DNA of 37,423 nt, taken from IMG/VR virus record IMGVR_UViG_3300045988_123575, positions 1 to 37,423 of that record. One strand, given 5' to 3'. The notes under the pieces are model-generated. The model was given only the letters and a program-made list of their open reading frames with translations. It searched no databases and had not been told where the DNA came from. Both the position numbers and the translations under genes were made by a program. Source of the DNA: a virus. Shown piece after piece: positions 16,250 through 34,966 of the stretch; the stretch's first letter is position 1; each line of letters opens with the position of its first letter.

Positions 16250-17707
16250 ATGGCTAATTTATACGCAACACCTAACCAATCCGGCGTAGACGCGCAAAAT
16301 AACATTAAGGTACCCGTAAACTATTCGCAAGAAAGCGGATTAGGTTTATTTTTAAGTCAGTTAAATGTGACACATACGGTGCCCGTGGTGAGAACGGTAA
16401 CGGCGGCTCAATTTATTTCAGGAAGTTATTCTATGTCTTTACCTAATGGCTATACTCCTGAGCCTTACAAGCTGCCGATGATCGAGCCTAGAAATGTAAT
16501 TGTAAATGGGGATACGGTTGTCTCTTATCTCCCGGTTAACGTGTATATAATTGGATCAAATTCTGATGTGGTTAATGTAAGTTCAAAAAAAATTCCTATT
16601 AAATTTAATACTCAGAATATATCGATTGGTGGTCAGTCATTTAATGCAATGGTAGGTAGTGCTGAGTATTATGTTATAATGTATGTAGCCCAAGGGAATA
16701 CAATAGACTGGAACAATTCGGATTTTATCGGAAAAGACAAATATACAGATCAGTATTTGCAAAGTGAATCGATTTGGATGATTAAATTCGATTTAGTAGG
16801 TGGGAATATACAACTAATCGATATCAACAATAACAATTTTTACCGAAACAACATTAAGAACTTAAAAACCCAAAAGAAAGACCTGTTAGTAAATGTGTTG
16901 AATGAAATTTATGACCTAGCTAATTCGGGAGCGGTAGGTCCGGCTGGAGGGGATTTAACGGGTACTTACCCTAATCCATCGATTGGAGATGGTAAAGTTG
17001 TAACTGCTAAAATAGCTGATCAAGCAGTAACAGAAGACAAAATAGCTACAGAGGCCATTACAGCGGGGAAACTTTATAGTGGTTCAGTTCTTACTTCTAA
17101 AATAGGTAACGGAGCGGTTACTACACAAAAAATAGGAGACGGGCAAGTAACAAATGAAAAAATGGCTAGCAATAGTGTAGCTACAGGGAATATTATAGAT
17201 GGGAATGTTACAAGCGCTAAATTAGCCACCGGGTCCGTAACGACATTAAAAATAGCTCCCAAAGCCGTAGCTTCCGGCAATATAGGCGATTTTGCCATCA
17301 CTAAAACTAAAATAGGCTCCGAGGCAGTTACGGAGGAAAAAATAGCTGTGGGAGCCGTTACCATTACTAAAATTGCGGAGTCTTCAATAAACCTTAGCAA
17401 ACTTCAAGGAACTCTATATAAAGGGAATGTTTATAGATTTATGACTGCAATAGTAGATGTTGTGAATAAAGAAATTACTACATCGGAAGATGGAGTATTA
17501 GGAAATGCTAGTTATGTTACTGATGGGGTAAATATAGGTTTACGTACTAGCCCCTCAAATATAGTAGGGGTATTAGCGAGCATTTTCGAACTAGCGGGAT
17601 TAGGAACTGATCCACATTATATTTATGCATCAAATGGAACAAACTTTATTCATGTTGGTTATAAAAATGTATCCAAATTTATAATTTTAATTCAAGTAAA
17701 AAATTAA
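16250..17707 (+). CDS. Tail fibre or receptor-binding protein with about 14 decapeptide repeats
   Basis: It carries a 'GDLTGTYPNPSI' motif followed by about 14 units of (V/I)T-x-x-K(I/L)-x-x-x-(A/S). It lies immediately after the tape measure. Confidence 0.65.
   Translation: MANLYATPNQSGVDAQNNIKVPVNYSQESGLGLFLSQLNVTHTVPVVRTVTAAQFISGSYSMSLPNGYTPEPYKLPMIEPRNVIVNGDTVVSYLPVNVYIIGSNSDVVNVSSKKIPIKFNTQNISIGGQSFNAMVGSAEYYVIMYVAQGNTIDWNNSDFIGKDKYTDQYLQSESIWMIKFDLVGGNIQLIDINNNNFYRNNIKNLKTQKKDLLVNVLNEIYDLANSGAVGPAGGDLTGTYPNPSIGDGKVVTAKIADQAVTEDKIATEAITAGKLYSGSVLTSKIGNGAVTTQKIGDGQVTNEKMASNSVATGNIIDGNVTSAKLATGSVTTLKIAPKAVASGNIGDFAITKTKIGSEAVTEEKIAVGAVTITKIAESSINLSKLQGTLYKGNVYRFMTAIVDVVNKEITTSEDGVLGNASYVTDGVNIGLRTSPSNIVGVLASIFELAGLGTDPHYIYASNGTNFIHVGYKNVSKFIILIQVKN
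16997..17412 (+). repeat. In-frame 30-nt (decapeptide) periodic repeat inside the tail fibre gene
   Basis: The reading is VVTAKIADQA / VTEDKIATEA / ITAGKLYSGS / VLTSKIGNGA / VTTQKIGDGQ and so on. The repeat also creates a spurious antisense ORF at 17074-17400. Confidence 0.75.
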
Positions 17708-17709
17708 TT

Positions 17710-18933
17710 ATGATCCATCAAATTTTTATAAAAGATGAAATAAAGCCGGAAACCGCGGTAGAAATAACCGGGCAGTTGGCCGGAATGAGTTTTGAAGCCG
17801 GAGACGAAGTAGATTTCTATTTCGATTCGGAAGGTGGGTACATTGAACCTGCTTTTGTCATTGCACATTGTATCGACACATTAATAGAGGAAGGAGTTGT
17901 AACTCGGGGCATTGTTACGGGACGTTGTAACAGTTCAGCGATTATCCCGTTTTTATCCTGCCTTATCCGTGAGTGCACCGAAGGCGCTAGCTTCCTGATC
18001 CATCCGGTAACGGTAAATGTAGACGAAGCCGGAGATATTAACGCGAAAGAGGCTAACGATATTGCTTCTAGCATTTGGGATATTACGTACGGTATTGAAA
18101 ATCACTACCGGAGTAAAGGTGTAAAAGAAGAGGCTATTAAATTCCTCTATGGGGAAGATGAATTAAACATTACTTCGGCTTTGTTGGCCAAGGGGTACGG
18201 TTTGCTTACCGAATTGGAGCCTGTTTCGGCCCCTATGAACATGAAGCGCGGCTTTTTAAAGGACTTGTTTTCTAACAGAAAAACAGGGATATATAAATTA
18301 ACTAGAAATTATAAACAATTCAAAAATGATTTCGGTATGGACATTGACGAAAAAATTACGAACATGAAAAATGAGATTCTTGCGGAAGTTAAGAATGCCA
18401 TTCAAGAAGCCCTCAAGCCAGAAGGTAAAAAAAATGAGGACGAAAAAGAAGACAAAAAAAATGAAGGTGAAGCATTGACCGAGGAAGAGGCAAAAAGCAT
18501 GGCGCCTCACTTCCGGAAAACTCCCGTAACTGTAGAAGGTCAGGAAGATATTAAGTATATCGCCCACCCGGGAAAAGATGTAGAAAAAGACCACTTTGTA
18601 ATTCCGATCGACAAAGACGGAAAAGCAAAAATGTTGCCCGAAGGTGACTACAAAGTGAATGACGGAGACGACGAGTTTTTGTTGCATTCCACTGGTACAA
18701 CTGCCTATATCCACGGTCGCGGTGAAGAGGGAAAGAAAAACGAAACCGAAGAGGAAACTAAGCCGGAGGATAAGAAAAACGAAACCGAAGAAATCACTAA
18801 ACACGAAGTTGTAACTAAGGCTCCCGTAAACCGTGGAACGTCCGGATCAAAATTCAGCAAGGTAGAACGCGAGTATTACTTAGCGCAAAAATACTGCGGC
18901 CGGGGCGCTGTAGGTGCGATGATTGAAAAATAA
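17710..18933 (+). CDS. ClpP-like (S14) prohead protease with a K/E-rich, scaffold-like C-terminal extension
   Basis: 'FDSEGGYIEPAFVIAHCI', 'GRCNSSAIIPFL' and 'FLIHPV' resemble the ClpP Gly-Gly, Ser and His motifs. It lies directly upstream of the capsid gene. Confidence 0.65.
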   Translation: MIHQIFIKDEIKPETAVEITGQLAGMSFEAGDEVDFYFDSEGGYIEPAFVIAHCIDTLIEEGVVTRGIVTGRCNSSAIIPFLSCLIRECTEGASFLIHPVTVNVDEAGDINAKEANDIASSIWDITYGIENHYRSKGVKEEAIKFLYGEDELNITSALLAKGYGLLTELEPVSAPMNMKRGFLKDLFSNRKTGIYKLTRNYKQFKNDFGMDIDEKITNMKNEILAEVKNAIQEALKPEGKKNEDEKEDKKNEGEALTEEEAKSMAPHFRKTPVTVEGQEDIKYIAHPGKDVEKDHFVIPIDKDGKAKMLPEGDYKVNDGDDEFLLHSTGTTAYIHGRGEEGKKNETEEETKPEDKKNETEEITKHEVVTKAPVNRGTSGSKFSKVEREYYLAQKYCGRGAVGAMIEK

Positions 18934-18952
18934 ACTCTAAATTTAAATTACT

Positions 18953-20077
18953 ATGGCAATATCAGCAGATCAGATCAGTAAGGCGATGATGGACAAGCCA
19001 GTCCAACCGCTTTTCAATACCATCTACAAAGTGGTATTAGGGGCCGGAATCCCCGTAATTGTTACCAATACTAACGTTGGTTTGGTGACTAGTGTAAAGG
19101 CAACCATTGGCAGTCAGCCGCAATGCACCACATTAACTGCGGCAATGTTGTCCGGCTCTACAACTACCGTAGAAACAGTAGGGTATGAGTTGGCTAAAAA
19201 CAAATACTTCTCTCAATTGGATTTGGAATGTGCTATCGTAACCGTTCCGAACGAAATGAGAACCGATGCATCCGGTTTAACCGAAGCTACTATTTACGAA
19301 GTTTTAGATACCATTGGCCGGAAAATGAGTGAGCAGTTGTTAACCAACTTCTTTACTGGCCTGCCTGCTCAGTTTACAGCATTGTTGCCCGAAGCTAACA
19401 TCGTATACGCACAGCGGGGTAAAATTGAATGGGACCCGACCAAAACCGCAGCAGAAGGAAGTACGAATATTTCGGCTATCCTGTCTTCCATTAACGCAAG
19501 CTTGCCCATTCAAATGCTTCCCGGTGGTAGCGCATCCCGGATCGTAGTTACTTGGGTATCCGCTCAGGACTTTTTGGTGATGAAAAATGGTGTAGCATCC
19601 GCTTACCAATATCAGAATGCCGGAGGTTTGCAAACCACCTACTTCCAGTACGTGAAAGAAGCTTCCACTCCGGAAGAGGAAAGAAACAAATTCGAGTTTG
19701 AAAAGATCGTATTTGGTAACATGCTTATCCTTCCGTTAAATGGACTGGCAAAAGACACCATCATCACGACCTATCAGGAAGGAATCGACCGGGGACGGGT
19801 GTTCTACGATAAAGTGCCTGCAAACCTGATGAATAACCTTTACTTGGTTATCGAAGGTGCTTTCACCCGTAACGACGAATTAACCGTCGATGTGGCTAAC
19901 CGTTCACGTGGATTTTTCGATCTTCCCTATCAGATCGGAGAATTGTTCGCAATCAACAAAGTAGAAACCGCACAGTTGAAATACAACGTGATTGCTTCGT
20001 TGAACCACTCTATTCTGTTCCGTGAACCGGATAAGGTGTTTGTTTATTTGCCAGGCGCTAAACCGTCTCAGGGATAA
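18953..20077 (+). CDS. Major capsid protein (probable)
   Basis: A 374-aa ORF immediately after the prohead protease. The call rests on position and size. Confidence 0.6.
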   Translation: MAISADQISKAMMDKPVQPLFNTIYKVVLGAGIPVIVTNTNVGLVTSVKATIGSQPQCTTLTAAMLSGSTTTVETVGYELAKNKYFSQLDLECAIVTVPNEMRTDASGLTEATIYEVLDTIGRKMSEQLLTNFFTGLPAQFTALLPEANIVYAQRGKIEWDPTKTAAEGSTNISAILSSINASLPIQMLPGGSASRIVVTWVSAQDFLVMKNGVASAYQYQNAGGLQTTYFQYVKEASTPEEERNKFEFEKIVFGNMLILPLNGLAKDTIITTYQEGIDRGRVFYDKVPANLMNNLYLVIEGAFTRNDELTVDVANRSRGFFDLPYQIGELFAINKVETAQLKYNVIASLNHSILFREPDKVFVYLPGAKPSQG

Positions 20078-20101
20078 TATTAACCTAAAAAAATTAGAAT
20101 T

Positions 20102-20818
20102 ATGGCAGTAAAAACTTGTAGACCTAACGATATCGATCACAACGGTTGGTGTTTGAAGGACCTATTTTCTTATGGTGAGGGCTTTGACTTAATTGCCATT
20201 CCTTCAACCGTATGGAATCAGTTAAAAGGTGTTTGGTTGAACCTGAATAATGGTGCCTCCGAATCGCCTAAAAAGGTGTTGGTAGCGGAAGAGGGATCAC
20301 CCCTAGTAAGCTATCAGTATAACGCTCCGCAGAGTTTAACAACTCTTTTCCCGGAGGGTTTCCCGACCGACGTAGCATTGTATTTCAAGGGTAACGCTTT
20401 GATTTTCAACCCTACTGTTGGCAATGCGATCGAGGCTAATGGTGTACCTTATCAACAGTCAACTATCAGTATTCCAATCGGTTCAGACATGTACTACGAC
20501 ATGTTTGCCCAGTTCATGCAGAGTAAGTCTTGGGTTTTCCTGAAACTGAGTTACGACAATCAGGTTTTGCATGTTTACGGTGGTCCCCGTGGTTACTTCC
20601 CGGTAGCCGACGAAATCGCCGAGATGATGTATTCCGGTAACAACGATGCTAAGGGAGAAACTCAACTCTCCTTTACTCAGGAAAAGGCCGCATATACAAT
20701 TGAGTACATCAAGAACGCAGAAGATTCTACGGACTCCGAAGCGCTTCCAAAACTGTTTGCCGAAATTCAAACGGCCATTTGTATTCCGACCACTCCCACA
20801 ACTTCACCGGGAACCTAA
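20102..20818 (+). CDS. Structural protein, short paralogue (238 aa); possibly a decoration or tail-tube protein
   Basis: Residues about 15-185 are near-identical to 22823-23965. It follows the capsid gene and shares an 'agaattATGGC' start context with the tail fibre gene. Confidence 0.7.
   Translation: MAVKTCRPNDIDHNGWCLKDLFSYGEGFDLIAIPSTVWNQLKGVWLNLNNGASESPKKVLVAEEGSPLVSYQYNAPQSLTTLFPEGFPTDVALYFKGNALIFNPTVGNAIEANGVPYQQSTISIPIGSDMYYDMFAQFMQSKSWVFLKLSYDNQVLHVYGGPRGYFPVADEIAEMMYSGNNDAKGETQLSFTQEKAAYTIEYIKNAEDSTDSEALPKLFAEIQTAICIPTTPTTSPGT
20140..20650 (+). repeat. Direct repeat arm 1 (about 510 nt), paralogous to 22860-23370
   Basis: The arms align at an offset of 2720 nt. There is a 123-nt perfect run (20180-20302 = 22900-23022). 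Most differences elsewhere are synonymous. Confidence 0.85.
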
Positions 20819-20832
20819 CTATTTGTTTGATC

Positions 20833-20864
20833 TATCCGTCCGGGCCTTGCATCCCGGGCGGATA
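20833..20864 (+). promoter_or_regulatory. GC-rich 12-bp stem-loop between the short paralogue and the portal gene, with no U-tract
   Basis: tatccgtccggg / ccttgcat / cccgggcggata. The stem has one G-U pair. The following sequence is A-rich. Confidence 0.5.
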
Positions 20865-20878
20865 TAAACTAAAAATCG

Positions 20879-22757: not shown

Positions 22758-22822
22758 GCGGAAAAATTATATACAAAAAACGCTGAAAATTATATACAAA
22801 AAACGCTGAAAATTATATAACC
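22758..22822 (+). repeat. Three tandem copies of a 23-bp unit (cgctgaaaattatatacaaaaaa) ending at the ATG of the long paralogue
   Basis: Copies at 22758-22780 (imperfect), 22781-22803 and 22804-22822 (truncated by the start codon). Confidence 0.85.
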
Positions 22823-23965
22823 ATGAAATTAACTCCGTGTCGCCCGAATACTTTAGATCGAAATGAATGGTGTTTGAAAGACCTATTTTCTTACGGGGAA
22901 GGCTTTGACTTAATTGCCATTCCTTCAACCGTATGGAATCAGTTAAAAGGTGTTTGGTTGAACCTGAATAATGGTGCCTCCGAATCGCCTAAAAAGGTGT
23001 TGGTAGCGGAAGAGGGATCACCACTGGTAAGTTACCAGTATAACGCTCCGGAAACTTTGTCTACTCTTTTCCCGGAAGGTTTTCCGACCGACGTAGCGTT
23101 GTATTTCAAGGGTAACGCTTTGATTTTCAACCCTACTGTGGGCAATGCAATTGAGGCCAACGGTGTGCCTTATCAGCAGTCAACTATCAGCATTCCAATT
23201 GGTTCAGACATGTACTACGACATGTTCGCCCAGTTTATGCAGAGTAAGTCTTGGGTTTTCTTGAAACTGAGTTACGACAACCAAATTTTGCACGTTTACG
23301 GTGGTCCTCGTGGTTACTTCCCGGTAGCCGACGAAATCGCCGAGATGATGTATTCCGGCAACAATGACAGTAAAGGAATGACTACTTTATCCTTCTCTCA
23401 GCCGAAAGCCCAGTTTACAATCGAATATATAGAGAATGCGAATAACATAGATAGCCCGAACGCTCTCCCCGACTTATTTAAAGCCATCCAAGCTAATATA
23501 TGTAAACCTACAGCTACCAACAATAATATGCAGGGCTTAGTAGGAGAATTGAAGTTTAGCACTGTGATAAATGGAGGCAAAATAAATGGGAAAAATATTA
23601 TCTTTGACCCTGTAGAAGAGGCAGGAGTAACGTCTATACAAATTTATGGGGAATATTCAGATCAATCCCAAATCGACATCTTAAATGCACATAAAGGAGA
23701 AAATCTGTTTTTAAATGGAGAAATAGAATTAAATGTACAAGCTATTCCGACTTGTGCTATAGCGTTCTATTTAAACGAATTAGACGATAACCCTTACACA
23801 ACTCAGTTTGAGCCTTTAAACCAAGGTAAACATACATTTACAATTGCTATCGATCCGCTCCCGGATGTAGAAATTAAAAAATTTGGTATTGCTTTGGTAT
23901 CTCAAACCGAAACAAACGGAACGGTTATATCGTATACAAATTTTGTTTTAGAGACTAAAATGTAG
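22823..23965 (+). CDS. Structural protein, long paralogue (380 aa) with an extra C-terminal domain of about 150 aa
   Basis: The N-terminal ~185 aa are near-identical to 20102-20818. The C-terminal extension looks like a beta-sandwich. Confidence 0.7.
   Translation: MKLTPCRPNTLDRNEWCLKDLFSYGEGFDLIAIPSTVWNQLKGVWLNLNNGASESPKKVLVAEEGSPLVSYQYNAPETLSTLFPEGFPTDVALYFKGNALIFNPTVGNAIEANGVPYQQSTISIPIGSDMYYDMFAQFMQSKSWVFLKLSYDNQILHVYGGPRGYFPVADEIAEMMYSGNNDSKGMTTLSFSQPKAQFTIEYIENANNIDSPNALPDLFKAIQANICKPTATNNNMQGLVGELKFSTVINGGKINGKNIIFDPVEEAGVTSIQIYGEYSDQSQIDILNAHKGENLFLNGEIELNVQAIPTCAIAFYLNELDDNPYTTQFEPLNQGKHTFTIAIDPLPDVEIKKFGIALVSQTETNGTVISYTNFVLETKM
22860..23370 (+). repeat. Direct repeat arm 2 (about 510 nt), paralogous to 20140-20650
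   Basis: Same evidence as for arm 1. Confidence 0.85.
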
Positions 23966-23969
23966 CATC

Positions 23970-24365
23970 ATGAATATATTTCAGAACATAGCAATCAGCA
24001 ATTTACGACTTCGGCCATTCTATCGCAGAAGACATCAACAGGATGCGTCGGATGATATTATCGTAGATGTACAAAAATGGTTCGGCGCTGATCCGGTATT
24101 TAATCAGTACGAACCTTTTCGATTAGGGTATGATATAGAGTTTAGTATTGCTTCTAAAACCGACCTGTTGAAGTGGATAGAGAACGATTACATGTTCGAA
24201 GTATTCAGCGACGAAAATAACCTACAATTAGGAGACAGCGCAGGATTTAAAATTACATCTGTTACCCCTCCCGCGTCTCCGGATGTATGTTTATATAGTT
24301 ATACTTTTAAGAGTGTGAAACCAAATAAAGAACCATTTAAAACCATTAACGATGAAAAAAAGTGA
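23970..24365 (+). CDS. Hypothetical virion-module protein (131 aa)
   Basis: Intact ORF 4 nt after the upstream stop. Confidence 0.6.
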   Translation: MNIFQNIAISNLRLRPFYRRRHQQDASDDIIVDVQKWFGADPVFNQYEPFRLGYDIEFSIASKTDLLKWIENDYMFEVFSDENNLQLGDSAGFKITSVTPPASPDVCLYSYTFKSVKPNKEPFKTINDEKK

Positions 24366-25014
24366 ACAATTAACCCTGCTTTTGGCGTTTTACGATAATC
24401 AACATCGGTTAAGTATGCAGCGGCTTATCCCGGACTTTTTATTGAAATTGAAAAAGACTGGGCAATACGGTATCCAATTAATTCAGAGCAGGCCTCAGTT
24501 ACTCGATGTTATATCCGATTCTAAAGCGCTAATTATGGAAATATCCCGGGCTATGGGAGAGCGCGCAGATATCGACGTGAATTATCGATATTTCTTAGGC
24601 CTAGCCTCAAAAATGCTTCCGGATATAGAACGTGTGGTAACCGAAAAGTACGCATTAACTAAAGCCCATGCGCTCTATCATTTTGGCTATTTCCCCGAGG
24701 ATGCTACACAATATAACATTGTGCGGGTTCTGATGGAAGAGAGGGCAAAAGCCGAAAGCGAAGAGGCCGAAAGCGAAAAGGCCCAAGCCGAAAGCGAAGA
24801 GGCCGAAAGCGAAAAGGCCCAAGCCGAAAGCGAAGAGGCCGAAAGCGAAAAGGCCCAAGCCGAAAGCGAAGAGGTACAAGAAGAACAGCCGGAAGAACAG
24901 CCGGAGACGGACGCTGACCCTAATTTCCAAGCCCCATCGTCGGAAATGACTTCCGAATTTGCCCAAGAAAAACAAGTAAAAAAAGGACATCCAAAGAAGG
25001 TAAAAGATGAATGA
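24352..25014 (+). CDS. Hypothetical protein (220 aa) with an acidic AESEEAESEKAQ tandem repeat
   Basis: Intact ORF that contains the 36-bp tandem repeat. Confidence 0.6.
   Translation: MKKSEQLTLLLAFYDNQHRLSMQRLIPDFLLKLKKTGQYGIQLIQSRPQLLDVISDSKALIMEISRAMGERADIDVNYRYFLGLASKMLPDIERVVTEKYALTKAHALYHFGYFPEDATQYNIVRVLMEERAKAESEEAESEKAQAESEEAESEKAQAESEEAESEKAQAESEEVQEEQPEEQPETDADPNFQAPSSEMTSEFAQEKQVKKGHPKKVKDE
24751..24874 (+). repeat. Perfect 36-bp tandem repeat, 3.4 copies, in frame
   Basis: gccgaaagcgaagaggccgaaagcgaaaaggcccaa at 24751, 24787 and 24823, with a partial copy at 24859-24874. Confidence 0.9.
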
Positions 25015-25477
25015 CGTATATTATAACATAAAGAGTGTAAGCGCTTCGGCCTTGTTGACGGTGATATCGTTTTTAAATCCGATACACATGGATATCCTCG
25101 TGATCTGTATTATGATTGTAGGGAATTTCTTTTTCGGATGGTGGGAGAGCGTAAAGGTGAAGGAAGAGCGATTCAAGATCGATAAATTCACCAAGGCAAT
25201 GAGTGAGGGTTTAGTATACGTGATCCTAGTAATAGGCGTATACATAGTGTTAAAAATGAAAGGGATCGAAGATAAAGCGATATACTGTACAAGTGTTATA
25301 AGTTATGCGGTTATTTATTTCTTGGGGTTAAATATCCTTCGAAATTTAAAAAGCCTTTACCCGGATAGCCGGGTCTTGGCTTTTTTATATTTTTGTGGTA
25401 GCTTGGAATTTACTAAAACACTGCCCCTACTAAAAAAATTTCTAAGCTACGAAAGCGAGCAGCAGACAAAGAAATGA
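25007..25477 (+). CDS. Multi-pass membrane protein, candidate holin
   Basis: It has 3-4 hydrophobic segments and a charged C-terminus. It is the last gene before a strong intrinsic terminator. Confidence 0.4.
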   Translation: MNDVYYNIKSVSASALLTVISFLNPIHMDILVICIMIVGNFFFGWWESVKVKEERFKIDKFTKAMSEGLVYVILVIGVYIVLKMKGIEDKAIYCTSVISYAVIYFLGLNILRNLKSLYPDSRVLAFLYFCGSLEFTKTLPLLKKFLSYESEQQTKK

Positions 25478-25510
25478 TTTGTGTGGATTATAATTTGGTG
25501 TATACCCCGA

Positions 25511-25543
25511 TCCCCCTTCTACATGGAGGGGGAATTTTTTTTT
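25511..25543 (+). terminator. Intrinsic terminator
   Basis: tcccccttc / tacat / ggaggggga hairpin followed by a T9 run. The T-run is also the 5' end of promoter cassette B. Confidence 0.8.
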
Positions 25544-25633
25544 GAAAAAAAACCTCAAAACGTTTGGTTAATTAAAAAATAGTGCTTACATTTGTAGTGT
25601 TGAAACAATAAAAACATTGAAGCCATGAAAAAT
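25535..25633 (+). promoter_or_regulatory. Promoter/leader cassette copy B (-33 at 25563-25566, -7 at 25587-25594, ATG at 25625)
   Basis: Positions 25536-25633 are identical to 1-98. Confidence 0.8.
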
Positions 25634-26263
25634 TACATTACAGTAGACGGAAAAAAATCGATCAACTTACCGGAAGAATATAAGGATATGCACGATGTTG
25701 TGCGTGGTACCATTTCTTGGCAGGTATGGGAAAAAGGAAATAAGAAAAGAGTATACGGTAAAGTATATTGCGGTGGGAAAGTAATAGAAGTTGGATACGT
25801 GGATTTGGTGAGCGGCCAAATGGTATTATCTAGCAATCCTCGCGCTATTGCTAAATCACTCTCCTACGATATCGAAATCGTAGAAATACCCGAAGAACCG
25901 GAAGAAATGGAAGAAATGGAAGAATCCCCGATCGAAGAACCCAAAAAAGATGTTGAGGGGAATGTTTTCAACTATGGAAGAAAAGAAGTGTTGTTGGTAG
26001 CTTGGGGTTATTTCCGGCGCCATTATTTCTCCACATTTGCCGAATCTTTACGGGTAGCTTGGGGAGAGTTCAAAGCCGGGAAAAAATGTTTCCTGATCGA
26101 ATTAAGAGATCGGATTAAGGCTAAAAGAAAGCCGATCGTAGAAAAGATGGTAGATTCCGGCATAAATACATTCAAAAATTTACCCGGTTCTTATAAAATG
26201 CGTATTGATTATTCGGCTGATTGGTTTGCCCCCAAATATCAGGCTCTATTTAATATCTTATAA
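25625..26263 (+). CDS. Hypothetical early protein (212 aa)
   Basis: The ATG lies inside the cassette. Intact ORF. Confidence 0.65.
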   Translation: MKNYITVDGKKSINLPEEYKDMHDVVRGTISWQVWEKGNKKRVYGKVYCGGKVIEVGYVDLVSGQMVLSSNPRAIAKSLSYDIEIVEIPEEPEEMEEMEESPIEEPKKDVEGNVFNYGRKEVLLVAWGYFRRHYFSTFAESLRVAWGEFKAGKKCFLIELRDRIKAKRKPIVEKMVDSGINTFKNLPGSYKMRIDYSADWFAPKYQALFNIL

Positions 26264-26264
26264 A

Positions 26265-26522
26265 ATGAGGTATGCACTTAGAAATATAGAGAAAATCCGG
26301 TCCTATTTCGAACCGTACGGAGATGAAATAATAGACCGGATATTAAAAAGCCTAGAGGATTATTTTGCCACGACCACCGGCATAGAAAAAGACATTGTTC
26401 AGGATGTTCGCCCGGTATTGTCGATTAACGACCTAGGGCATTCCTTCGGCCTGATTGAATTTTATATAATAAAGAAAACCTACGACGTCTATATATTGGC
26501 GTTTAAAAGATTCGTAAACTGA
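26265..26522 (+). CDS. Hypothetical protein (85 aa)
   Basis: The ATG at 26265 is 1 nt after the upstream TAA. The track start at 26205 is a TTG inside the upstream gene. Confidence 0.55.
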   Translation: MRYALRNIEKIRSYFEPYGDEIIDRILKSLEDYFATTTGIEKDIVQDVRPVLSINDLGHSFGLIEFYIIKKTYDVYILAFKRFVN

Positions 26523-26926
26523 TGACAGCACACGAAAAACTAATAGCAGACCTAGATAAATGGTTTAGTATATATATCCGCCTCCGAGATGCGAATGAGG
26601 CCGGATTTATAACCTGCATATCTTGCGGCCGGAAAGTATATTGGAAAGACGCGGACGCCGGGCATTACATTCCCCGGAAACACATGGCCACACGATTTAA
26701 CGAGGTAAACGTAAACTCACAGTGCATCGACTGTAACCGATATATGCGCGGAAATATTGACGCCTATCGTGAGGGAATAATTGCCTTACATGGCAGTGAG
26801 ATGTATGAAAAACTGGAAGCGATGAAATTTCAGACTTTTAAGCTATCAGACGCCGAATTAAAGGAGATGCGAACACAGGTAAAAGAAGAGATAAAAAGAT
26901 TGAAAGAAGAAAAGAAATTGAAATGA
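26522..26926 (+). CDS. ninG: NinG/Rap-family recombination endonuclease
   Basis: 'CISCG...DAGHYIPR...RFNEVNVNSQCIDCN...GN..AY' follows the pattern of the lambda NinG C-terminal domain. Confidence 0.8.
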   Translation: MTAHEKLIADLDKWFSIYIRLRDANEAGFITCISCGRKVYWKDADAGHYIPRKHMATRFNEVNVNSQCIDCNRYMRGNIDAYREGIIALHGSEMYEKLEAMKFQTFKLSDAELKEMRTQVKEEIKRLKEEKKLK

Positions 26927-27285
26927 ATCAGGATTATAAATTTGTAGTAAAGGATAGTATTCTAATAAGAGGGATATTAGACAGTTTGCATTATCGTCCG
27001 ATCGATGTATATAAAAGATTAACCGGGGAATTATATATATTCCCGGCTGATAGAGTAATTACAACGAATCGTACAATTTCCGAAAAATGGTCCGGTGAAC
27101 TAGTCGATCTAGGGAATAATATTGACCTATTCAATGAAATATTGGTTCAAAATAAAGGGTATATTTTTAAAGAAAATATATATAAAATAGCCAACATATA
27201 TTGTAAAAAAAGCTGTGGTACATGTCCCTTGGCTCACAAACATTCGTGTAAGGATAGGATAGAGTTTATCGAAAAGTTTTTTTGA
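26923..27285 (+). CDS. Hypothetical protein (120 aa), Cys-rich C-terminus
   Basis: Intact ORF. Its TGA stop lies inside the T-run of cassette C. Confidence 0.55.
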   Translation: MNQDYKFVVKDSILIRGILDSLHYRPIDVYKRLTGELYIFPADRVITTNRTISEKWSGELVDLGNNIDLFNEILVQNKGYIFKENIYKIANIYCKKSCGTCPLAHKHSCKDRIEFIEKFF

Positions 27286-27374
27286 AAAAAAATTGGTAAA
27301 ACGTTTGGTTAATTAAAAAATAGTGCTTACATTTGTAGTGTTAAAACAATAAAAACATTGAAGCCATGAAAAAA
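27277..27374 (+). promoter_or_regulatory. Promoter/leader cassette copy C (-33 at 27304-27307, -7 at 27328-27335); the cassette ATG at 27366 opens only a 10-codon uORF
   Basis: Same cassette with a few substitutions. The uORF at 27366-27398 (MKKVEINVIF) precedes the erf ATG at 27411. Confidence 0.75.
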
Positions 27375-27410
27375 GTAGAAATTAATGTAATATTTTAAAT
27401 CCAAAAAAAT

Positions 27411-28073
27411 ATGAAAGCAACAGAAACAACAAAAAAAACAGAAAGTTACGGTGAAGGGAATATTTATGTTCGAGTAGCCAAGATCGCCAACGAAATCGGG
27501 GCAATTGAAAAAAATATGGTAGTAGGTTCCGGTGTGTCTGCCTACGAAGCTTTGGCGGATGTGGATGTGATTCTAAAAGTGAAAGAGGCCGAACAAAAAT
27601 ACGGAGTGGTATCGGTTCCGGTAAAAATGGAAATCGTAGAAAGCAAGGAAATAAAGACCTTAAATTCGAATAATTCCGAGGATGTCTATTTCGTAGACGT
27701 CGTAAAAATGATATGGGAATTTGTAAATCTAGATCGTCCGTCCGACAAAATAGTCGTAGAATCGGCCGGAAGGGGGATCGACTACGGAGATAAAGGATTG
27801 AATAAGGCTATTACTTACGCCCGAAAAAATGCTTTGCGTAATGCCTATAAAATCGGGGCATCAGCAAAGGAGGACCCCGAGGCAACGAAATCCGAAAAGA
27901 AAACAGTTAAAAAGACTGAGGATATGCGTATAGCAATTACAAATTACTTTGCTGATAAACCGGAGGAGCTGCCCAAGGTTTTGAAATCTTTCGCTGCGGA
28001 AAATTTAGCGGAGATCACCGATAAAGACATAAAGACGATATACAATACCTACCACAAAAAAGGATTGTTATGA
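27411..28073 (+). CDS. erf: ERF-family single-strand annealing protein
   Basis: 'GDKGLNKAITYARKNALRNAYKIG' resembles the conserved ERF core. It is followed by an exonuclease gene with an ATGA overlap. Confidence 0.6.
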   Translation: MKATETTKKTESYGEGNIYVRVAKIANEIGAIEKNMVVGSGVSAYEALADVDVILKVKEAEQKYGVVSVPVKMEIVESKEIKTLNSNNSEDVYFVDVVKMIWEFVNLDRPSDKIVVESAGRGIDYGDKGLNKAITYARKNALRNAYKIGASAKEDPEATKSEKKTVKKTEDMRIAITNYFADKPEELPKVLKSFAAENLAEITDKDIKTIYNTYHKKGLL

Positions 28074-28681
28074 TAGAGAGTATGTATATTGGCTCCGGGG
28101 ACGTCGCCGCGCTTCTGATGGGGAAGAATACCAAAACGCATCAGGCCTTGCTTAAACGTTTTGTTTCCGGTGTTATTCCCTACTATAACGCTTTGGCTTC
28201 TCCCATCGATCAGTTAAGGACCGGGGCGATCTTAGAGGAACGAATGTTACTTCAATTGCCGGACGATTATTTCGCACAGTACAAAATAGTCTGCCAAGAA
28301 ATGGACGTATTCAAGGCCTCGTTAGATTTCGCTAAAATATCGGAGGGGCAGATAGTCGAATTTATAGAGATGAAAACTATTTGGTGGGAAGAATTTGGAG
28401 AGTTAAAGAAAAAAATAGATGAAGGCAATCCCCTAGAGTACATCTTAAAAAAACGGAAACACGAATATAATCAGGTTCAGGAACAGTTATTATGCACGGG
28501 ATTAAGCAAGGGGAAAATACGTTATACCTCGGTCTCTACCTACGACGATTCCGAAAATTGGCTGCGGTTCTTTGCTCCCTCTGATTATGTCGATGTCGAA
28601 ATCGATCGGGACGAAAAGGTCATCGATCTAATAAAAGAGCGAGGTAAGGTGTTTCAACTGATTAAAGATGCCTATGAATAA
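28070..28681 (+). CDS. YqaJ/lambda-Exo-like PD-(D/E)XK recombination exonuclease
   Basis: It has 'IGSGDVAALLMG' at the N-terminus, a D...E-x-K pattern ('SLDFAKI...VEFIEMKT') and 'YNQVQEQLLCTG'. All three are typical of YqaJ-type exonucleases. Confidence 0.6.
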   Translation: MIESMYIGSGDVAALLMGKNTKTHQALLKRFVSGVIPYYNALASPIDQLRTGAILEERMLLQLPDDYFAQYKIVCQEMDVFKASLDFAKISEGQIVEFIEMKTIWWEEFGELKKKIDEGNPLEYILKKRKHEYNQVQEQLLCTGLSKGKIRYTSVSTYDDSENWLRFFAPSDYVDVEIDRDEKVIDLIKERGKVFQLIKDAYE

Positions 28682-29255
28682 AGTGAAAATTGTAATCGGG
28701 TTAATAGCCATCCTTTCTATAGGATGGCTAACCTTTGAAAATAAGCATCTGCGAAAAGAGGTGCAAATAAAGCGAAATAACGAAGCTTCGTTACTGGATG
28801 GTGTATCTTACTACAAAACGAAAGATAGTTTAAATGTAGCCCGGATAGGGGTGCTAGAACTAAAAAAGAAAGAGATCGAAGAACATATCCCTGAATTGAA
28901 GAAAGAAATAGAGCGCTTAAATATAAAACTGAAACGTGTAGAAAGCATTGGATTTTATCCTACTCAGATTATCGGGAGGGTAGATAGTAGGCTAAAAGAC
29001 ACAATTATTTTTGCAAATCCAGTAAAAAGTTTTACCTTTGACGATGGATATTTAAAGCAATCCGGTATAATCACTCGGGACAGTTTAAAAAGTAGTTATA
29101 CATACACCGACACGATTATTCCTGTTATTGAGAAAATACCGCATAGATTTCTGTTTATTCGCTACGGAGTGAAAGCCTATCGGCTTGAAATCTTTTCTAA
29201 GAACCACAAGGCGCATATCATTTGCCCTAAACAAATCTCCGTCCGGCGAAAGTAA
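28668..29255 (+). CDS. N-terminally membrane-anchored coiled-coil protein (195 aa)
   Basis: The TM segment 'VKIVIGLIAILSIGWL' is followed by a coiled coil. Function unknown; a spanin-like role is speculative. Confidence 0.55.
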   Translation: MPMNKVKIVIGLIAILSIGWLTFENKHLRKEVQIKRNNEASLLDGVSYYKTKDSLNVARIGVLELKKKEIEEHIPELKKEIERLNIKLKRVESIGFYPTQIIGRVDSRLKDTIIFANPVKSFTFDDGYLKQSGIITRDSLKSSYTYTDTIIPVIEKIPHRFLFIRYGVKAYRLEIFSKNHKAHIICPKQISVRRK

Positions 29256-29287
29256 CATGATTCTGTTTTTTATATGTTTCAACACCC

Positions 29288-29313
29288 GTCCCTCCGAAGA
29301 GGGACATTTTTTT
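29288..29313 (+). terminator. Intrinsic terminator
   Basis: gtccctc / cgaa / gagggac hairpin followed by a T7 run that is shared with cassette D. Confidence 0.75.
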
Positions 29314-29402
29314 GAAAAAAAACCTCAAAACGTTTGGTTAATTAAAAAATAGTACTTACATTTGTAGTGTTGAAACAATAAAAACATTGAAGTCATGAAA
29401 AC
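29307..29402 (+). promoter_or_regulatory. Promoter/leader cassette copy D (-33 at 29333-29336, -7 at 29357-29364, ATG at 29395)
   Basis: Differs from copy A at two positions. Confidence 0.8.
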
Positions 29403-29901
29403 AATTTATTATCAGTTATTCGATGAAAATTTTGATTTGTTGGTGAATGGAAATGAAAATCCGGCAAATATAGCAGACAACACCAATTTGGCCACTGCTA
29501 AAAAGCAGGCTAAAGAATGGATGAAAAAAAATAGAGTGGCCAACGCCATTCTCCAAATTAACGCCTCTTATGATGATGGACGCGATGAAATAGTGGATAG
29601 TAGAAATTTGGAGGTAGATAAATCGGAATTTGTAGAAGTTAAAAGGACAGCCGAAGAGTTGTTAAGTTTAACCGGTGAAGAATACAATAAGTTGTCCGCG
29701 ATAGATCGTTTAAGGTGGCACATGGCATATTTAAAAAACATCTTGAGGAATGAGAAGGACCCGGAATATATTCATTATATACGGGTACAAATTATACTAA
29801 ATTGCAATCTTATCCGGCAGGGCCATGTTGATAATTACTTATTTTGGAGCATGGTTCGCGAGCAGTTAGGGTTAAAATATTTTACTCCATCCCATGTTTA
29901 A
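29395..29901 (+). CDS. Hypothetical early protein (168 aa)
   Basis: The ATG lies inside the cassette. Intact ORF. Confidence 0.65.
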   Translation: MKTIYYQLFDENFDLLVNGNENPANIADNTNLATAKKQAKEWMKKNRVANAILQINASYDDGRDEIVDSRNLEVDKSEFVEVKRTAEELLSLTGEEYNKLSAIDRLRWHMAYLKNILRNEKDPEYIHYIRVQIILNCNLIRQGHVDNYLFWSMVREQLGLKYFTPSHV

Positions 29902-30175
29902 GGTTAGTAAAAAAATGTTGACTTCTGCCCAAAAACAAGAAGTCAGCACCTTATTAGAGGATATGACCGGGCTTCCCTACTATAAAAAGGGAGAGGTGTT
30001 AGGCAAGCTAGGGTATCGCCTAAATTATGTCCCTAATCCTATTACCCCGGGAGCCATCCCCATCACGGGGAAGGCCGGACAGATTTGGTTAAGGAAAGGT
30101 AAATTATTCTTAGAAATAGGGGAAGGCCGACTTTGGTATGAAGAAATCGCCATTGTACCATTAAAGAGGCAATAA
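29894..30175 (+). CDS. Hypothetical protein (93 aa)
   Basis: Intact ORF with an 8-nt overlap upstream. Confidence 0.55.
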   Translation: MFKVSKKMLTSAQKQEVSTLLEDMTGLPYYKKGEVLGKLGYRLNYVPNPITPGAIPITGKAGQIWLRKGKLFLEIGEGRLWYEEIAIVPLKRQ

Positions 30176-30199
30176 AGTTTAAAACAAAAAAATAGAATC

Positions 30200-30835
30200 A
30201 TGAAAAATTTTGAGGAATTTAAAAATGAAATACGACGAAGGGCAATCTTACATGGAGCATGCGCTGAGCAATATATACGGTTTTGGAAGAAAACAGATTT
30301 TGCGGGATTGTGCGAAGTTATTCGCAACAACTTTATTTGGTGTTGTAATAACATATTTGACAAAGAATTGTTTGAAGTATATGGAGATATCTTGGGCCAA
30401 TACGCTATTAACTATAATAAGAATGTAAATTCGGGATGTTTGATGGTGGACGGTCGTAATAGTGTGAAAGTCGGTGGAAATGTGACGGTCTATGCTAAAG
30501 ATGAAGCCTATATTGTGTCGGACAGTTATTCGCACATCATCGCCCGGGATAACACCATTGTACACGCATACAGGTATGAAAACATAGAAGCTAGTGATAA
30601 TGCAGAGGTAGATGCTTACCGAGGGGCATATGTTATTGCATTTGACGATGCTAGGCTAGAATTGAGTGGCGGTTGTATGGCCAAGATGTACGATAATACT
30701 ACCGCTATAGTAAACGATCTAGTAGTAGTAGTAGGGTTGAATGATAATCACATCATCACTCAGAAAGAATTTAAAGGCGCAATTATTTATCAGGACAAAA
30801 ACCATAAATTTTATCTCCATGAAACGAATAGGTAA
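30200..30835 (+). CDS. Hypothetical protein (211 aa); conserved 'NFxWCC' N-domain plus a repetitive beta-strand region; paralogue of 35492-35896
   Basis: Both proteins share F.EFK...A...C..Y...F..LC.VI..NF.WCC, followed by alternating short strand-like repeats. Confidence 0.65.
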   Translation: MKNFEEFKNEIRRRAILHGACAEQYIRFWKKTDFAGLCEVIRNNFIWCCNNIFDKELFEVYGDILGQYAINYNKNVNSGCLMVDGRNSVKVGGNVTVYAKDEAYIVSDSYSHIIARDNTIVHAYRYENIEASDNAEVDAYRGAYVIAFDDARLELSGGCMAKMYDNTTAIVNDLVVVVGLNDNHIITQKEFKGAIIYQDKNHKFYLHETNR

Positions 30836-31019
30836 CGGTATTTGGCTAATGTATTATTACGGATGTACCATCGTAATAAACGAAGGATTCAAGGAAATCA
30901 CTGTAGGAACACCTAAATCACAGGTGATAAAGTATCAATTTGAAGATACGCCTACAATCGAAGATTTAGAACAGATACAAGGATTAATATTAGAAGCTTA
31001 TGGACCTCAAGCTGCATAA
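30819..31019 (+). CDS. Hypothetical protein (66 aa)
   Basis: The ATG at 30819 overlaps the end of the upstream gene. The track start at 30741 is internal to that gene. Confidence 0.45.
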   Translation: MKRIGNGIWLMYYYGCTIVINEGFKEITVGTPKSQVIKYQFEDTPTIEDLEQIQGLILEAYGPQAA

Positions 31020-31434
31020 CACCATATACGGGCTAATCCCCGTATATGATGAAGATTACGACGAAAAGTTAAAGTTGAAGTTAGGGGAAACCTACACCGC
31101 CAAGATAAAGTTAACCCGGAATTTGGCGTTTCACCGGAAATATTTTGCAATGCTCCGGTGTGCATGGGATTTGCAAAGTGAGGCAGTACAAAATCATTTC
31201 CGCAATAACTTTACTCAATTCCGCAAGACAGTTCAGATCGCCGCCGGGATATCGGAGCCTGTGTACGTAATTAGCCGTAAAGAATTTGTCGAGCAGGCTA
31301 AAAGTATAAGCTTCGAAAGCATGAGCGAAGAGGAATTTATTGATCTGTATAAGAGCGTAAAAAATGTTCTATTCGATGTGTTTCTGAAAAATGTGAGTGA
31401 AAGCGATTTTATGCATATGTTAACTAATTACTGA
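31000..31434 (+). CDS. DUF1367-like phage protein
   Basis: 'TRNLAFHRKYFAMLRCAW' resembles the 'RNxxFHRKFFALL' signature of DUF1367 proteins. Confidence 0.6.
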   Translation: MDLKLHNTIYGLIPVYDEDYDEKLKLKLGETYTAKIKLTRNLAFHRKYFAMLRCAWDLQSEAVQNHFRNNFTQFRKTVQIAAGISEPVYVISRKEFVEQAKSISFESMSEEEFIDLYKSVKNVLFDVFLKNVSESDFMHMLTNY

Positions 31435-32240: not shown

Positions 32241-32413
32241 GAAAACGCCTCCCTGATAAGCTACCTAAGAAAAAACCGTCTGATTGCCTACAGTGTGAGC
32301 ACTGTAAAGAACTAACATGGTTTAATCGCATTGTGTGTGATCGAGCCGTGGTGCCTATAGAAAATTGTTTAACCCGAAAAATAGAATGTGTAAAATGGAA
32401 GCAAAAGAAATAG
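32231..32413 (+). CDS. Hypothetical Cys-rich protein (60 aa)
   Basis: Intact ORF that ends in TAG. Confidence 0.45.
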   Translation: MDMRKRLPDKLPKKKPSDCLQCEHCKELTWFNRIVCDRAVVPIENCLTRKIECVKWKQKK

Positions 32414-32628
32414 TACATGAAATAATAACCGATCTCCGGGCTACCTGCATGCGTAAGGGGATATCTCCTAATCGCGTACTGGGTTATATGGGTGCGTACG
32501 ATTGCCGTATATATTATCCCAAAGCTATTACACCCGATATTACATTATTAGCAAAGCTTTCCGGCCAAGGGAAAAGGTACGAAAAAATACCCGGTAGCAA
32601 GTCGAATATACTGAAAATTTATTTCTAA
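32395..32628 (+). CDS. Hypothetical protein (about 77 aa)
   Basis: The start is an ATG at 32395, or alternatively 32386. It overlaps the upstream gene. Confidence 0.5.
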   Translation: MEAKEIVHEIITDLRATCMRKGISPNRVLGYMGAYDCRIYYPKAITPDITLLAKLSGQGKRYEKIPGSKSNILKIYF

Positions 32629-32641
32629 ATAAATCCATATC

Positions 32642-32714
32642 TTTTTGGAAGATTAAAGAGTAATTCGTATATTTGTAGAGTTGAAATAAGAATAGGATTA
32701 TAATTTAAACCATG
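32642..32714 (+). promoter_or_regulatory. Degenerate promoter cassette (-33 TTTG at 32644-32647, -7 TAtaTTTG at 32668-32675, ATG at 32712)
   Basis: 20-nt spacer. 'atttgtagagttgaaataa' resembles the 'atttgtagtgttgaaacaa' of the main cassette. Confidence 0.6.
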
Positions 32715-33233
32715 ATCAAAAGCATTTTAGAGATAGAATTTAAAAAGACTGGGGAGCGTTATTACTTCACCAGTTATCTAGGCATCTTTGCCAACTTTAC
32801 CCCGGAAGAGGTAGGCACCACCATGCGTCAAATTTACTTCTTGCCCAAAAACGAGTTAGGGGAGCGTGAGACGTCGACGATCTATATTCGGAACGTCCTC
32901 TTAGGTGGTAAAGCCGATATTATCCGTCGTAACCGCGATGCAGAACCTAAATATAGTTACGCGCAAATTATGCAGCTTCGTCCGAAAAGACGGTATGTAT
33001 CTCCGGCTGATGGCTTAACCTACGGCCTGAATGAATTGGCCAAGCTGAATCCCTGTGAGGGATCGCCTCTAATCGGGTATGAGGGAGACGTATTAGTATA
33101 TTTGGTAGATATCCCCACCTTATGTGAAAGGGGATTGAGGAAAGCCATTGCGCAGCGCATGATCAATTTAGGATGGAGATTCGAATACATCTCCGGCAAA
33201 ATCGAAGCATATTTCAGTTATGAACTAAAATAA
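32712..33233 (+). CDS. Hypothetical protein (173 aa)
   Basis: Intact ORF downstream of a promoter-like element. Confidence 0.65.
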   Translation: MIKSILEIEFKKTGERYYFTSYLGIFANFTPEEVGTTMRQIYFLPKNELGERETSTIYIRNVLLGGKADIIRRNRDAEPKYSYAQIMQLRPKRRYVSPADGLTYGLNELAKLNPCEGSPLIGYEGDVLVYLVDIPTLCERGLRKAIAQRMINLGWRFEYISGKIEAYFSYELK

Positions 33234-34486: not shown

Positions 34487-34517
34487 TTTGTCTCAAAAAT
34501 TCCCGGGGTGAGACAAA
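34487..34517 (+). promoter_or_regulatory. Stem-loop (8-9 bp stem: tttgtctc ... gagacaaa) with no U-tract
   Basis: A perfect inverted repeat immediately after the TAG stop. Its role is unknown. Confidence 0.3.
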
Positions 34518-34550
34518 AATAAACCCTGCGAATAGTACAATATTGGAAAA

Positions 34551-34965: not shown

Positions 34966-34966
34966 T

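Follow-up and report, generated by a model that had tools for sequence, protein, structure and literature searches.

The window analysed here is the whole 37,423-nucleotide (nt) stretch of the IMG/VR virus record IMGVR_UViG_3300045988_123575, and its positions 25,511 to 25,633 hold a hairpin and one copy of a repeated 98-nt element, the cassette, in which a T-run/A-run tract, a predicted promoter, a short leader and a start codon follow one another. The genome carries four full copies of this cassette, called D, A (25536), B (27277) and C (29306). The cassette is probably a complete expression start unit for the host RNA polymerase, which spread to the starts of operons, is kept uniform by gene conversion and became an incidental site of homologous exchange. 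The finding of the cassettes is real and the kind of element is not new, comparable cases being the promoter-early stem-loop (PeSL) elements of T4-like phages and a repeat family of the Bacteroides fragilis phage B40-8. The cassettes and the hairpins before them, with lengths of proteins in amino acids (aa), are as follows.

25511 to 25533, + strand: GC-rich hairpin before cassette A, with a 9-bp stem and a 5-nt loop; it ends the 25-kb structural block.
25535 to 25633, + strand: cassette A, with T9-G-A8 at 25535-25552, the -33 TTTG at 25563-25566, the -7 box TACATTTG at 25587-25594, the predicted start site at G25599, a 26-nt leader at 25599-25624 and ATG 25625, which opens a 212-aa ORFan.
27277 to 27374, + strand: cassette B, with a T7-G-A8 tract, the -7 box at 27328-27335 and ATG 27366; no hairpin.
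27366 to 27398, + strand: short open reading frame (ORF) opened by cassette B, 10 codons (MKKVEINVIF and a stop), 12 nt ahead of the Erf-like gene start at 27411.
29288 to 29305, + strand: GC hairpin before cassette C, with a 7-bp stem, after the DUF6549 gene and followed by A-T7; predicted intrinsic terminator.
29306 to 29403, + strand: cassette C, with the -33 TTTG at 29333-29336, the -7 box TACATTTG at 29357-29364 and ATG 29395, which opens a 168-aa ORFan.
32620 to 32717, + strand: most diverged copy, with TTTG at 32644-32647, the -7 box TATATTTG at 32668-32675, then TAGAGTTGAAAT, and ATG 32712.
35403 to 35497, + strand: diverged copy, with an A-run, CTTG at the -33 position, the -7 box TATATTTG at 35457-35464 and ATG 35492.
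37326 to 37423 (= 1-98), + strand: cassette D, directly after the stop codon (37323-37325) of the large terminase gene (TerL), no hairpin; in 1-98 coordinates T8-G-A8 at 1-17, the -33 TTTG at 28-31, a 20-nt AT-rich spacer at 32-51, the -7 box TACATTTG at 52-59, the predicted start site at G64 and ATG at 90, which opens an 80-aa ORFan (90-332).

The repeat search returned 98-nt copies at 1-98, 25536-25633 (100%), 27277-27374, 29306-29403 (95%) and 37326-37423 (100%), and the copy at 27277-27374 is 91% identical without gaps and 95% identical with a 1-nt shift. The sites 1-98 and 37326-37423 are one physical copy, because the 11 assemblies in which the D junction is internal (L057 and L063-L072) read from TerL through one cassette into the 80-aa gene. 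The element described in an earlier note on this DNA is real; its five sites are thus four copies, and what it took for three exact 98-nt copies are two, one of which, the copy D of the window, needs caution. Position 88 of copy D is T (GAAGTCATG) in 11 of the 11 other genomes and C (GAAGCCATG) in the window, as in copy A, and the window ends coincide exactly with the limits of the A/D identity. This is either a conversion of copy D by copy A in this strain or a product of the assembler, which would have taken the bases from copy A. These observations, together with the breaking of several assemblies at the repeats of the genome, are what could be expected if the repeats or their exact identity were assembly artefacts, an idea to which we give almost no credence: 20 independent assemblies, which come from different studies and assemblers, have copies A, B and C inside the contig and between unique flanks, and 11 have copy D inside it. 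For the repeats as a whole this explanation was rejected on these 20 and 11 assemblies, the C/T state of the window copy D being set apart. The 98-nt repeats are nevertheless break points of short-read assembly, which affects how contig ends and 'terminal repeats' are to be read.

Two degenerate copies had also been proposed, at 35403 and 32642. The first was confirmed: it is 69-78% identical to the full copies, a profile of the full copies detects 35410-35497 at E=4e-8, and its ATG opens a 134-aa gene (35492-35896) upstream of TerL. The 32642 site shares the layout only (TTTG-N20-TATATTTG-TAGAGTTGAAAT...ATG, with 63-66% identity and an ATG that opens a 173-aa gene) and gave no match to the cassette profile at E<0.01; 32620-32717 is either the most diverged member of the family or an independent promoter of the same design. 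The first genes after the cassettes are uncharacterised, as had been said, those after A, C and D being ORFans without a Pfam or PHROG match. The roles in host takeover or anti-defence for which they were put forward are guesses. The 212-aa protein after cassette A is restricted to this phage species, and no homologue of it was found in other phage backgrounds. In three related genomes (L005, L006 and L009) a 124-nt deletion, 35529-35652, shortens the 134-aa gene after the 35403 cassette to 59 aa, and this first gene is therefore probably dispensable.

The core of the cassette, TTTG-N20-TACATTTG, is well supported as a predicted Bacteroidota promoter of the sigma-ABfr type, which it matches exactly in consensus. 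The Bacteroidota consensus has TTTG at -33 and TAHHTTTG at -7, with T-12, A-11, T-8, T-7, T-6 and G-5 nearly invariant (PMC6847099). The pattern TTTG-N17-23-TAnnTTTG occurs 8 times in the window against 2.0 expected, a count that 0 of 100 shuffles reached, and six of the eight matches are cassettes (the five full-copy sites, with both D ends counted, and the 32642 copy). Intergenic TAHHTTTG boxes are found in the window at the six cassette sites only. All six have TACATTTG or TATATTTG as the -7 box and five have the -33 TTTG with a 20-nt spacer, the 35403 copy having CTTG; in the full copies the -7 box lies 30 nt from the ATG, which is part of the sequence ATGAAAA. Because the published consensus puts the G of the -7 box at -5 (PMC6847099), the start site of copy D is predicted at about G64 and the leader at 26 nt. 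Every sub-element of the anatomy first described, i.e., terminator, promoter, leader lacking a Shine-Dalgarno sequence and start codon, was present in a scan of the window, and the reading of the cassettes as operon starts is supported by sequence evidence. As we picture it, the host sigma-ABfr-type polymerase would read the TTTG (-33) and TACATTTG (-7) core and start about 5 nt past the -7 G, and the T8-G-A8 tract, which lies at about -64 to -48, is probably an AT-rich UP-like upstream element that would aid it.

Copies A and C alone are preceded by a predicted terminator. The T9 run of cassette A (25535-25543) is the U-tract of the 25511-25533 hairpin, which was called as an intrinsic terminator by a terminator scan and is present in the minimum-free-energy fold; the same scan called the hairpin before cassette C, so that the two copies said to sit directly behind GC-rich hairpins, with the T-run as terminator U-tract, are A and C. 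At these two places the T-run would complete the terminator of the upstream block. In copies B and D the upstream stop codon lies in or beside the T-run, and the T7-G-A8 tract of cassette B contains the stop codon (27283-27285) of an upstream 120-aa gene. An identical hairpin is found at two of the four cassette copies of the relative L027, whose TerL is 73% identical. Because only two cassettes have terminators, read-through from C is probable, and the likely transcription domains, as far as they can be predicted, are A-B (25536-29305, with the recombination genes) and a second one that begins at C, passes both diverged copies and D and continues into the structural block of 25 kb. The idea that the cassettes divide the genome into modules is only partly right, as transcription from C probably runs through 32642, 35403 and D.

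The leader is about 26 nt long, A-rich and without a Shine-Dalgarno sequence. Conservation extends beyond the promoter to ATGAAAA, and a 3' leader motif, TTGAAGYCATGAAA, recurs in two other lineages, L034 and L036; both would fit a structured RNA (a riboswitch-like regulator, a stability element or a small RNA) made of the leader and first codons and needing its exact sequence. The folding results speak against this: the copy-A leader folds more weakly than shuffled versions of it (minimum free energy -0.4 kcal/mol, z=+1.64, with 199 of 200 shuffles folding at least as well), and the leaders of L027, L034 and B40-8 are also unstructured (z +0.4 to +1.8). No Rfam family reached its gathering score, the best hit having 23.5 bits against a gathering score of 46 and lying on the terminator hairpin, and the leader of L027 has 45 nt of unrelated sequence. 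Among 40 window genes, A stands at -11 to -13 in 28-33 of the 40, no Shine-Dalgarno sequence is present, and AAA is the second codon in 10 (25%) against 5.5% of codons overall. Because this context matches, the leader with ATGAAA is a good example of the general start context of the phage and not a special signal, and A-richness and ATGAAA are already explained by it. The RNA-level regulator or stability element suggested previously is thus not borne out, and we regard it as highly improbable. We infer instead that the leader and ATG-AAA make up a good Bacteroidota translation initiation region, in which the open A-rich leader and ATG-AAA would launch translation.

Cassette B differs from the other copies in the 5 nt after the A-run (TTGGT vs CCTC elsewhere) and in a G>A change at the predicted +4, and cassette C carries the A variant of the spacer (29354) and a T at -3 from the ATG (GAAGTCATG). 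The earlier description needs a correction at 27277, where the ATG of cassette B opens only the 10-codon ORF ahead of the Erf-like gene. It would seem from this that the cassette was pasted, together with its ATG, before a start that was already there, that of the Erf-like gene. Such an apparent insertion, together with several near-identical copies, is also what a small non-autonomous element, similar to a miniature inverted-repeat transposable element (MITE) and transposing within or between phage genomes, would leave behind. The cassettes nevertheless keep one orientation throughout, each ATG opens an ORF (in copy B one of 10 codons only), no inverted copy and no terminal inverted repeats besides the low-complexity T/A runs were found, no target-site duplication was seen, no transposase was recognised among the window proteins, and the positions are fixed in 20 genomes (A-C) and 11 (D). 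A MITE-like element was rejected on orientation, fixed positions and the lack of terminal inverted repeats, and we hold it to be very doubtful.

The near-identity of the copies (93-100% over 98 nt) is best explained by gene conversion, i.e., concerted evolution, and not by selection on every base. In the alignment of 25000-31400 from 20 genomes, which covers copies A-C and has a mean difference of 0.2%, single-nucleotide polymorphisms (SNPs) occupy 57 of 6406 columns, 7 of 294 in the cassettes versus 50 of 6112 outside (Fisher p=0.015). The cassettes are therefore not protected and, if anything, are enriched in SNPs. Three of the seven cassette SNP columns are one equivalent spacer position (25584 / 27325 / 29354), where the state G or A at copies A, B and C is GGG in 13 genomes, GGA in 3, and AAA, GAG and AAG in one each, and the A7 spacer variant of copy B is found again in copy D of L057. 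Gene conversion between copies is concluded because paralogous copies share variants. The proposal that the extra conservation reflects selection on the leader and first codons is thus the weaker one, since the SNP density of the cassettes is not reduced and the leader is replaced between lineages; homogenisation by recombination, which had been offered as the alternative, fits better with the polymorphisms shared by paralogues and with the uniform, lineage-wise change of the whole cassette.

The comparison between lineages leads to the same explanation. L027 has its own family of four cassettes in the 21 kb compared, all of which carry the -7 box TACCTTTA.

2352 to 2465, L027: cassette, after one of the conserved genes or beside the NinG block, as are the next three.
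4265 to 4378, L027: cassette.
5182 to 5295, L027: cassette.
11419 to 11532, L027: cassette.

Their layout is a T/A-run, TTTG, a 19-nt spacer, TACCTTTA, a 45-nt leader and ATGAAA, and they occupy positions equivalent to those in the window, behind DUF6549 and TerL, and also flank the NinG block. Within a genome the cassettes are 93-100% identical in the window, 79-94% in L027 and 72-78% in L034. Between the window and L027 they are 49-65% identical, the tested pair having 56% against a shuffle baseline of 46 +/- 10% (about 1 SD (standard deviation) above), and the adjoining 300 nt of TerL are 73% identical; between the window and L034, the TerL of which is 45% identical, the cassettes are 66-77% identical. 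The cassettes evolve in concert inside each genome, not along the TerL tree. Because the leader diverges freely between lineages, base-by-base selection on it is disfavoured. What is kept across lineages is the design, namely the -7 box, the start region YAGTGTYRAAA, the A-rich open leader and ATGAAA. Own cassette families are also present in L034, L036, L043 and L046 (TerL 47%), and no such family was found in the relatives L031, L033 and L035. L036 is a 36-kb contig in a Bacteroidales metagenome-assembled genome and the sole match in the genome collection; it has its own two-copy cassette, and at the protein level the 8 kb compared had no similarity to the window.

That every lineage has its own cassette sequence would also be expected if identity were kept by selection, with a phage DNA-binding protein recognising a long site, for example the T8-G-A8 palindrome or the spacer, in each cassette. 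The cassettes would then be a co-regulated, lineage-specific class of promoters, similar to stoperators or to phage-specific promoter classes. The non-consensus -7 box TACCTTTA common to all four L027 copies points the same way, as do the T-run and A-run kept in hairpin-less copies and in L027 and L034. On the other side, no DNA-binding regulator was recognised among the window proteins, the host consensus is reproduced in the core without a mismatch, SNPs are borne by the cassettes no worse than by coding DNA, and a concerted change of several copies requires conversion anyway. Selection by such a protein is therefore judged improbable. Under the conversion reading that we prefer, the unit would have been copied to several operon starts and then kept uniform, with the Erf, NinB and NinG genes of the phage as the putative drivers. 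As a by-product the repeats would serve as sites of homologous exchange, at which gene blocks and ORFans could be replaced or moved between related phages, as for the PeSLs of T4.

Differences in gene order agree in part with such exchange. At two places of the window and L027 the upstream genes, DUF6549 and TerL, are conserved, a cassette comes next and the first downstream genes are unrelated: after the DUF6549 cassette there are genes of 168, 86 and 211 aa in the window vs 116 aa in L027, and after the TerL cassette an 80-aa gene and a 3-kb methyltransferase block vs a 78-aa gene. Homology between the two resumes where no cassette stands, so that the right-hand end of the replacement is cassette-free. 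Both genomes have a NinG block with cassettes on either side, but in the window it precedes the Erf block and in L027 it follows the NinB block; L034 has a third block order. Recombination at the repeats would produce this pattern, and so would any rearrangement that respects operons, because the cassettes fill nearly all large intergenic gaps there. Gene content thus differs after the cassettes at two sites of L027 and around the NinG block, and in the close population no mapped indel is sited at a cassette. A role of the cassettes in block shuffling is only partly shown.

A stronger version would make the cassettes active recombination joints: Erf, NinB and NinG would cut out ORFan blocks as circles with one cassette each and insert them again at another cassette, of the same genome or of a co-infecting phage. 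We think this rather unlikely. If it were true, the private cassette sequence would decide between which phages blocks are exchanged, and perhaps by which phage factor the promoters are read, and the system would parallel the PeSL mini-circles in a Bacteroidales phage that is among the most prevalent of the human gut.

Several observations weigh against the cassette as an expression unit homogenised by conversion and used for exchange. The cassettes occupy nearly all sizeable gaps of the region, and any operon-respecting rearrangement will look cassette-bounded. The block order around copies A-C is fixed in 20 genomes of a population that is about 99.7-99.8% identical, and the indels mapped in L001-L009, none of which lies at a cassette, are a coding tandem repeat, a PAPS reductase insert at 32392 and the deletion 35529-35652. 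The variants shared by copies could partly reflect recurrent mutation or the mis-phasing of short-read assemblies in a 98-nt repeat. The hairpin is missing from copies B and D, so that the terminator part varies, and promoter, start site and terminator are all predicted from sequence. The purine at -3 is G, where A is favoured (PMC6847099), and all four L027 cassettes have A for the nearly invariant G at -5, which is odd for a strong promoter read purely by the host and leaves room for a phage factor.

The resemblance to PeSLs that had been pointed out holds as a functional analogy, on the L027 comparison and on the anatomy of the unit. PeSLs of T4-like phages comprise an upstream stop codon, an AT-rich region, a sigma-70 promoter, a stem-loop, a Shine-Dalgarno sequence and a start codon, and they mostly precede ORFans, bound indels and form mini-circles (Arbiol et al. 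2010, PMC2839356; Comeau et al. 2014, PMC4122927). The cassette is likewise a repeated intergenic unit with a consensus promoter for the primary sigma factor of the host and an AT-rich upstream region, it runs from an upstream stop codon to a downstream ATG, the first proteins of 80, 212 and 168 aa have no family match, and between the window and L027 gene replacements start at the units, their right-hand ends being without a cassette. However, its promoter is of the Bacteroidota -33/-7 type and not sigma-70, a Shine-Dalgarno sequence is lacking, and the hairpin lies upstream of the unit in two of the four copies, whereas that of a PeSL lies within or overlaps the promoter. There are 4-6 cassette copies that are 93-100% alike, as compared to about 50 less similar ones in a PeSL-bearing genome, the genome is that of a 37-kb non-T4-like phage, and no indel of the close population lies at a cassette. 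By analogy the cassette may be called a PeSL analogue and not a strict PeSL, since it belongs to a 37-kb genome with a TerL at most 24% identical to those of GenBank phages.

The view that no such elements are described for Bacteroidota phages was too strong. The B. fragilis phage B40-8 (ATCC 51477-B1, NC_011222; L042) has at least four copies of a promoter-leader unit of about 100 nt.

23 to 122, B40-8: copy of the unit.
16722 to 16821, B40-8: copy of the unit.
18932 to 19031, B40-8: copy of the unit.
32498 to 32597, B40-8: copy of the unit.
16445, 20939 and 29419, B40-8: partial copies.

Like the cassette, these combine a -7 box (TTATATTTG) with an A-rich leader that does not fold and an ATG; they stand where blocks begin, on the coding strand, and have the start-site region TTTG-YAGTGTYRAAA in common with it. 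They are unlike it in sequence and come from an unrelated phage lineage, neither TerL nor the DNA giving a match; the copies are 70-75% alike except for the pair reported as perfect, and there is no T8-G-A8 tract. Hawkins et al. reported in 2008 a '96 bp perfect repeat' and four putative promoters of B40-8 (PMC2535602). Repeat and promoters were not linked in that genome paper, and no cassette family was proposed (PMC2535602). A text search of the literature for the B40-8 promoter sequence found no paper. Three B40-8 copies end in an ATG without an annotated gene (at about 119, 19028 and 32594), and small ORFs may have been missed in that record.

Compared with start regions of Bacteroidota hosts (PMC6847099), the cassette has the same -33/-7 spacing, AT-rich spacer, A-rich positions -11 to -15 and low structure near the start codon, but host promoters are individually diverged, often with a weak -33, while the cassette is one full-consensus version copied almost base for base, and its -3 base is G instead of the favoured A. 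P_BfP1E6, a Bacteroides 'phage promoter' used in synthetic biology, is described as very strong and constitutive, with a translation start region of its own, and is said to come from a B. fragilis phage (PMC11554821; bioRxiv 10.1101/2025.03.18.644028). By this description it resembles the cassette. Whitaker et al. reportedly defined P_BfP1E6 in 2017 from several similar promoters of one phage. Short repeats at gene starts or block junctions, some of them recombination joints, are also represented by the stoperators of Cluster A and the start-associated sequences of Cluster K mycobacteriophages and by the 'boundary sequences' of lambdoid phages. Those motifs are protein- or ribosome-binding sites of 13-17 bp or short junction homologies, not promoter-leader units of about 100 nt.

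The cassette is of interest as a compact, multiplied expression unit and as a candidate strong expression part for Bacteroides engineering. For viruses it is a tidy, small example of concerted evolution, with paralogous promoters that share polymorphisms and cassette sequences that are specific to lineages. It would also extend the PeSL idea, that regulatory repeats serve as joints of modular exchange, past T4-like phages to small phages of gut Bacteroidales. Since B40-8 and three further lineages have comparable families, phages of this phylum that depend on the host RNA polymerase may follow a general design rule.

The window is the circular-assembly representation of a phage genome of about 37.3 kb, from a common and uncultured phage of the human gut, and all of its genes lie on the + strand. 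The genes recognised near the cassettes are the following.

26522 to 26926, + strand: NinG, recombination set.
27411 to 28073, + strand: Erf-like gene, recombination set.
31000 to 31434, + strand: NinB, recombination set.
33682 to 34167, + strand: small terminase.
34967 to 35413, + strand: amidase endolysin.
35877 to 37325, + strand: large terminase TerL, TTG start.

Other recognised products are a 1773-aa tape-measure-like protein, a tail fibre protein, a ClpP-like protease, a portal-like protein and a methyltransferase. No integrase or repressor was recognised among the window proteins, and the window has no tRNA genes and no Rfam families at threshold. The TTG start of TerL overlaps the end of the preceding 134-aa gene, and the Walker A motif GGSGSGKT lies upstream of the ATG picked by gene callers. 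Public calls of TerL use this later ATG, 54 codons downstream of the TTG, which gives 428 aa and loses the Walker A motif; in the relative L069 TerL is called at 489 aa.

The phage seems widespread in human-gut assemblies, the exact Erf-like protein being found in 527 blocks of a public assembly collection and the exact 80-aa protein, the first after cassette D, in 403 blocks of the same collection. Neither the whole window nor the cassette by itself had a DNA relative among GenBank phages, where the searches gave only chance matches at E=0.3, and TerL is at most 24% identical to those of GenBank phages, Listeria phages being best. Pattern and TerL searches of IMG/VR did not find the phage itself, only relatives with 47% TerL identity. 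An IMG/VR scan for the exact 36-nt leader gave no match and one with the -7/leader pattern gave 0 matches; a loose leader pattern gave 5, of which four are chance matches within genes and the fifth, L041, is a single promoter without a repeat family. A single-protein locus search with TerL found nothing, and a metagenome scan with a TerL alignment found 6 loci, including L057. The related assemblies are 37.0-38.2 kb long and break at differing places.

Other variable or repeated regions were noticed in this genome. The insert of the PAPS-reductase family (about 0.9 kb, 295-313 aa) lies at 32392-32396, about 250 nt upstream of the 32642 promoter; it occupies 16772-17681 in L002 and is also present in L047, L050 and L057. 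An in-frame 36-nt tandem repeat at 24749-24874, within the gene 24352-25014, has 3.5 perfect copies in the window, and its copy number varies among relatives, with products of 196, 203, 207, 208 and 220 aa. An internal duplication of about 570 nt, 20147-20718 and 22868-23439, is 87-89% identical (core 20085-20384 / 22806-23105), so that most of a 238-aa gene (20102-20818) recurs as the N-terminal half of a 380-aa gene (22823-23965). Several related assemblies break at this duplication, and L056 is without the 380-aa gene. The gap before the 380-aa gene is filled by a perfect 23-nt tandem repeat, AAAATTATATACAAAAAACGCTG, of 2.5 copies (22763-22819), which has no TAHHTTTG box and could be a regulatory or late-promoter-like site. 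Three more intergenic GC-rich hairpins have neither a cassette nor a clear T-run, one after the 238-aa gene (20819-20878) and two before the 100-aa and amidase genes (34487-34550 and 34854-34966); they could be attenuators or sites of RNA processing or stability inside a long transcription unit. In the distant IMG/VR relative L043, about 38 tandem 8-nt units fill some 300 nt at 7467-7770, and the related locus L046 carries repeated promoter cassettes on both strands.

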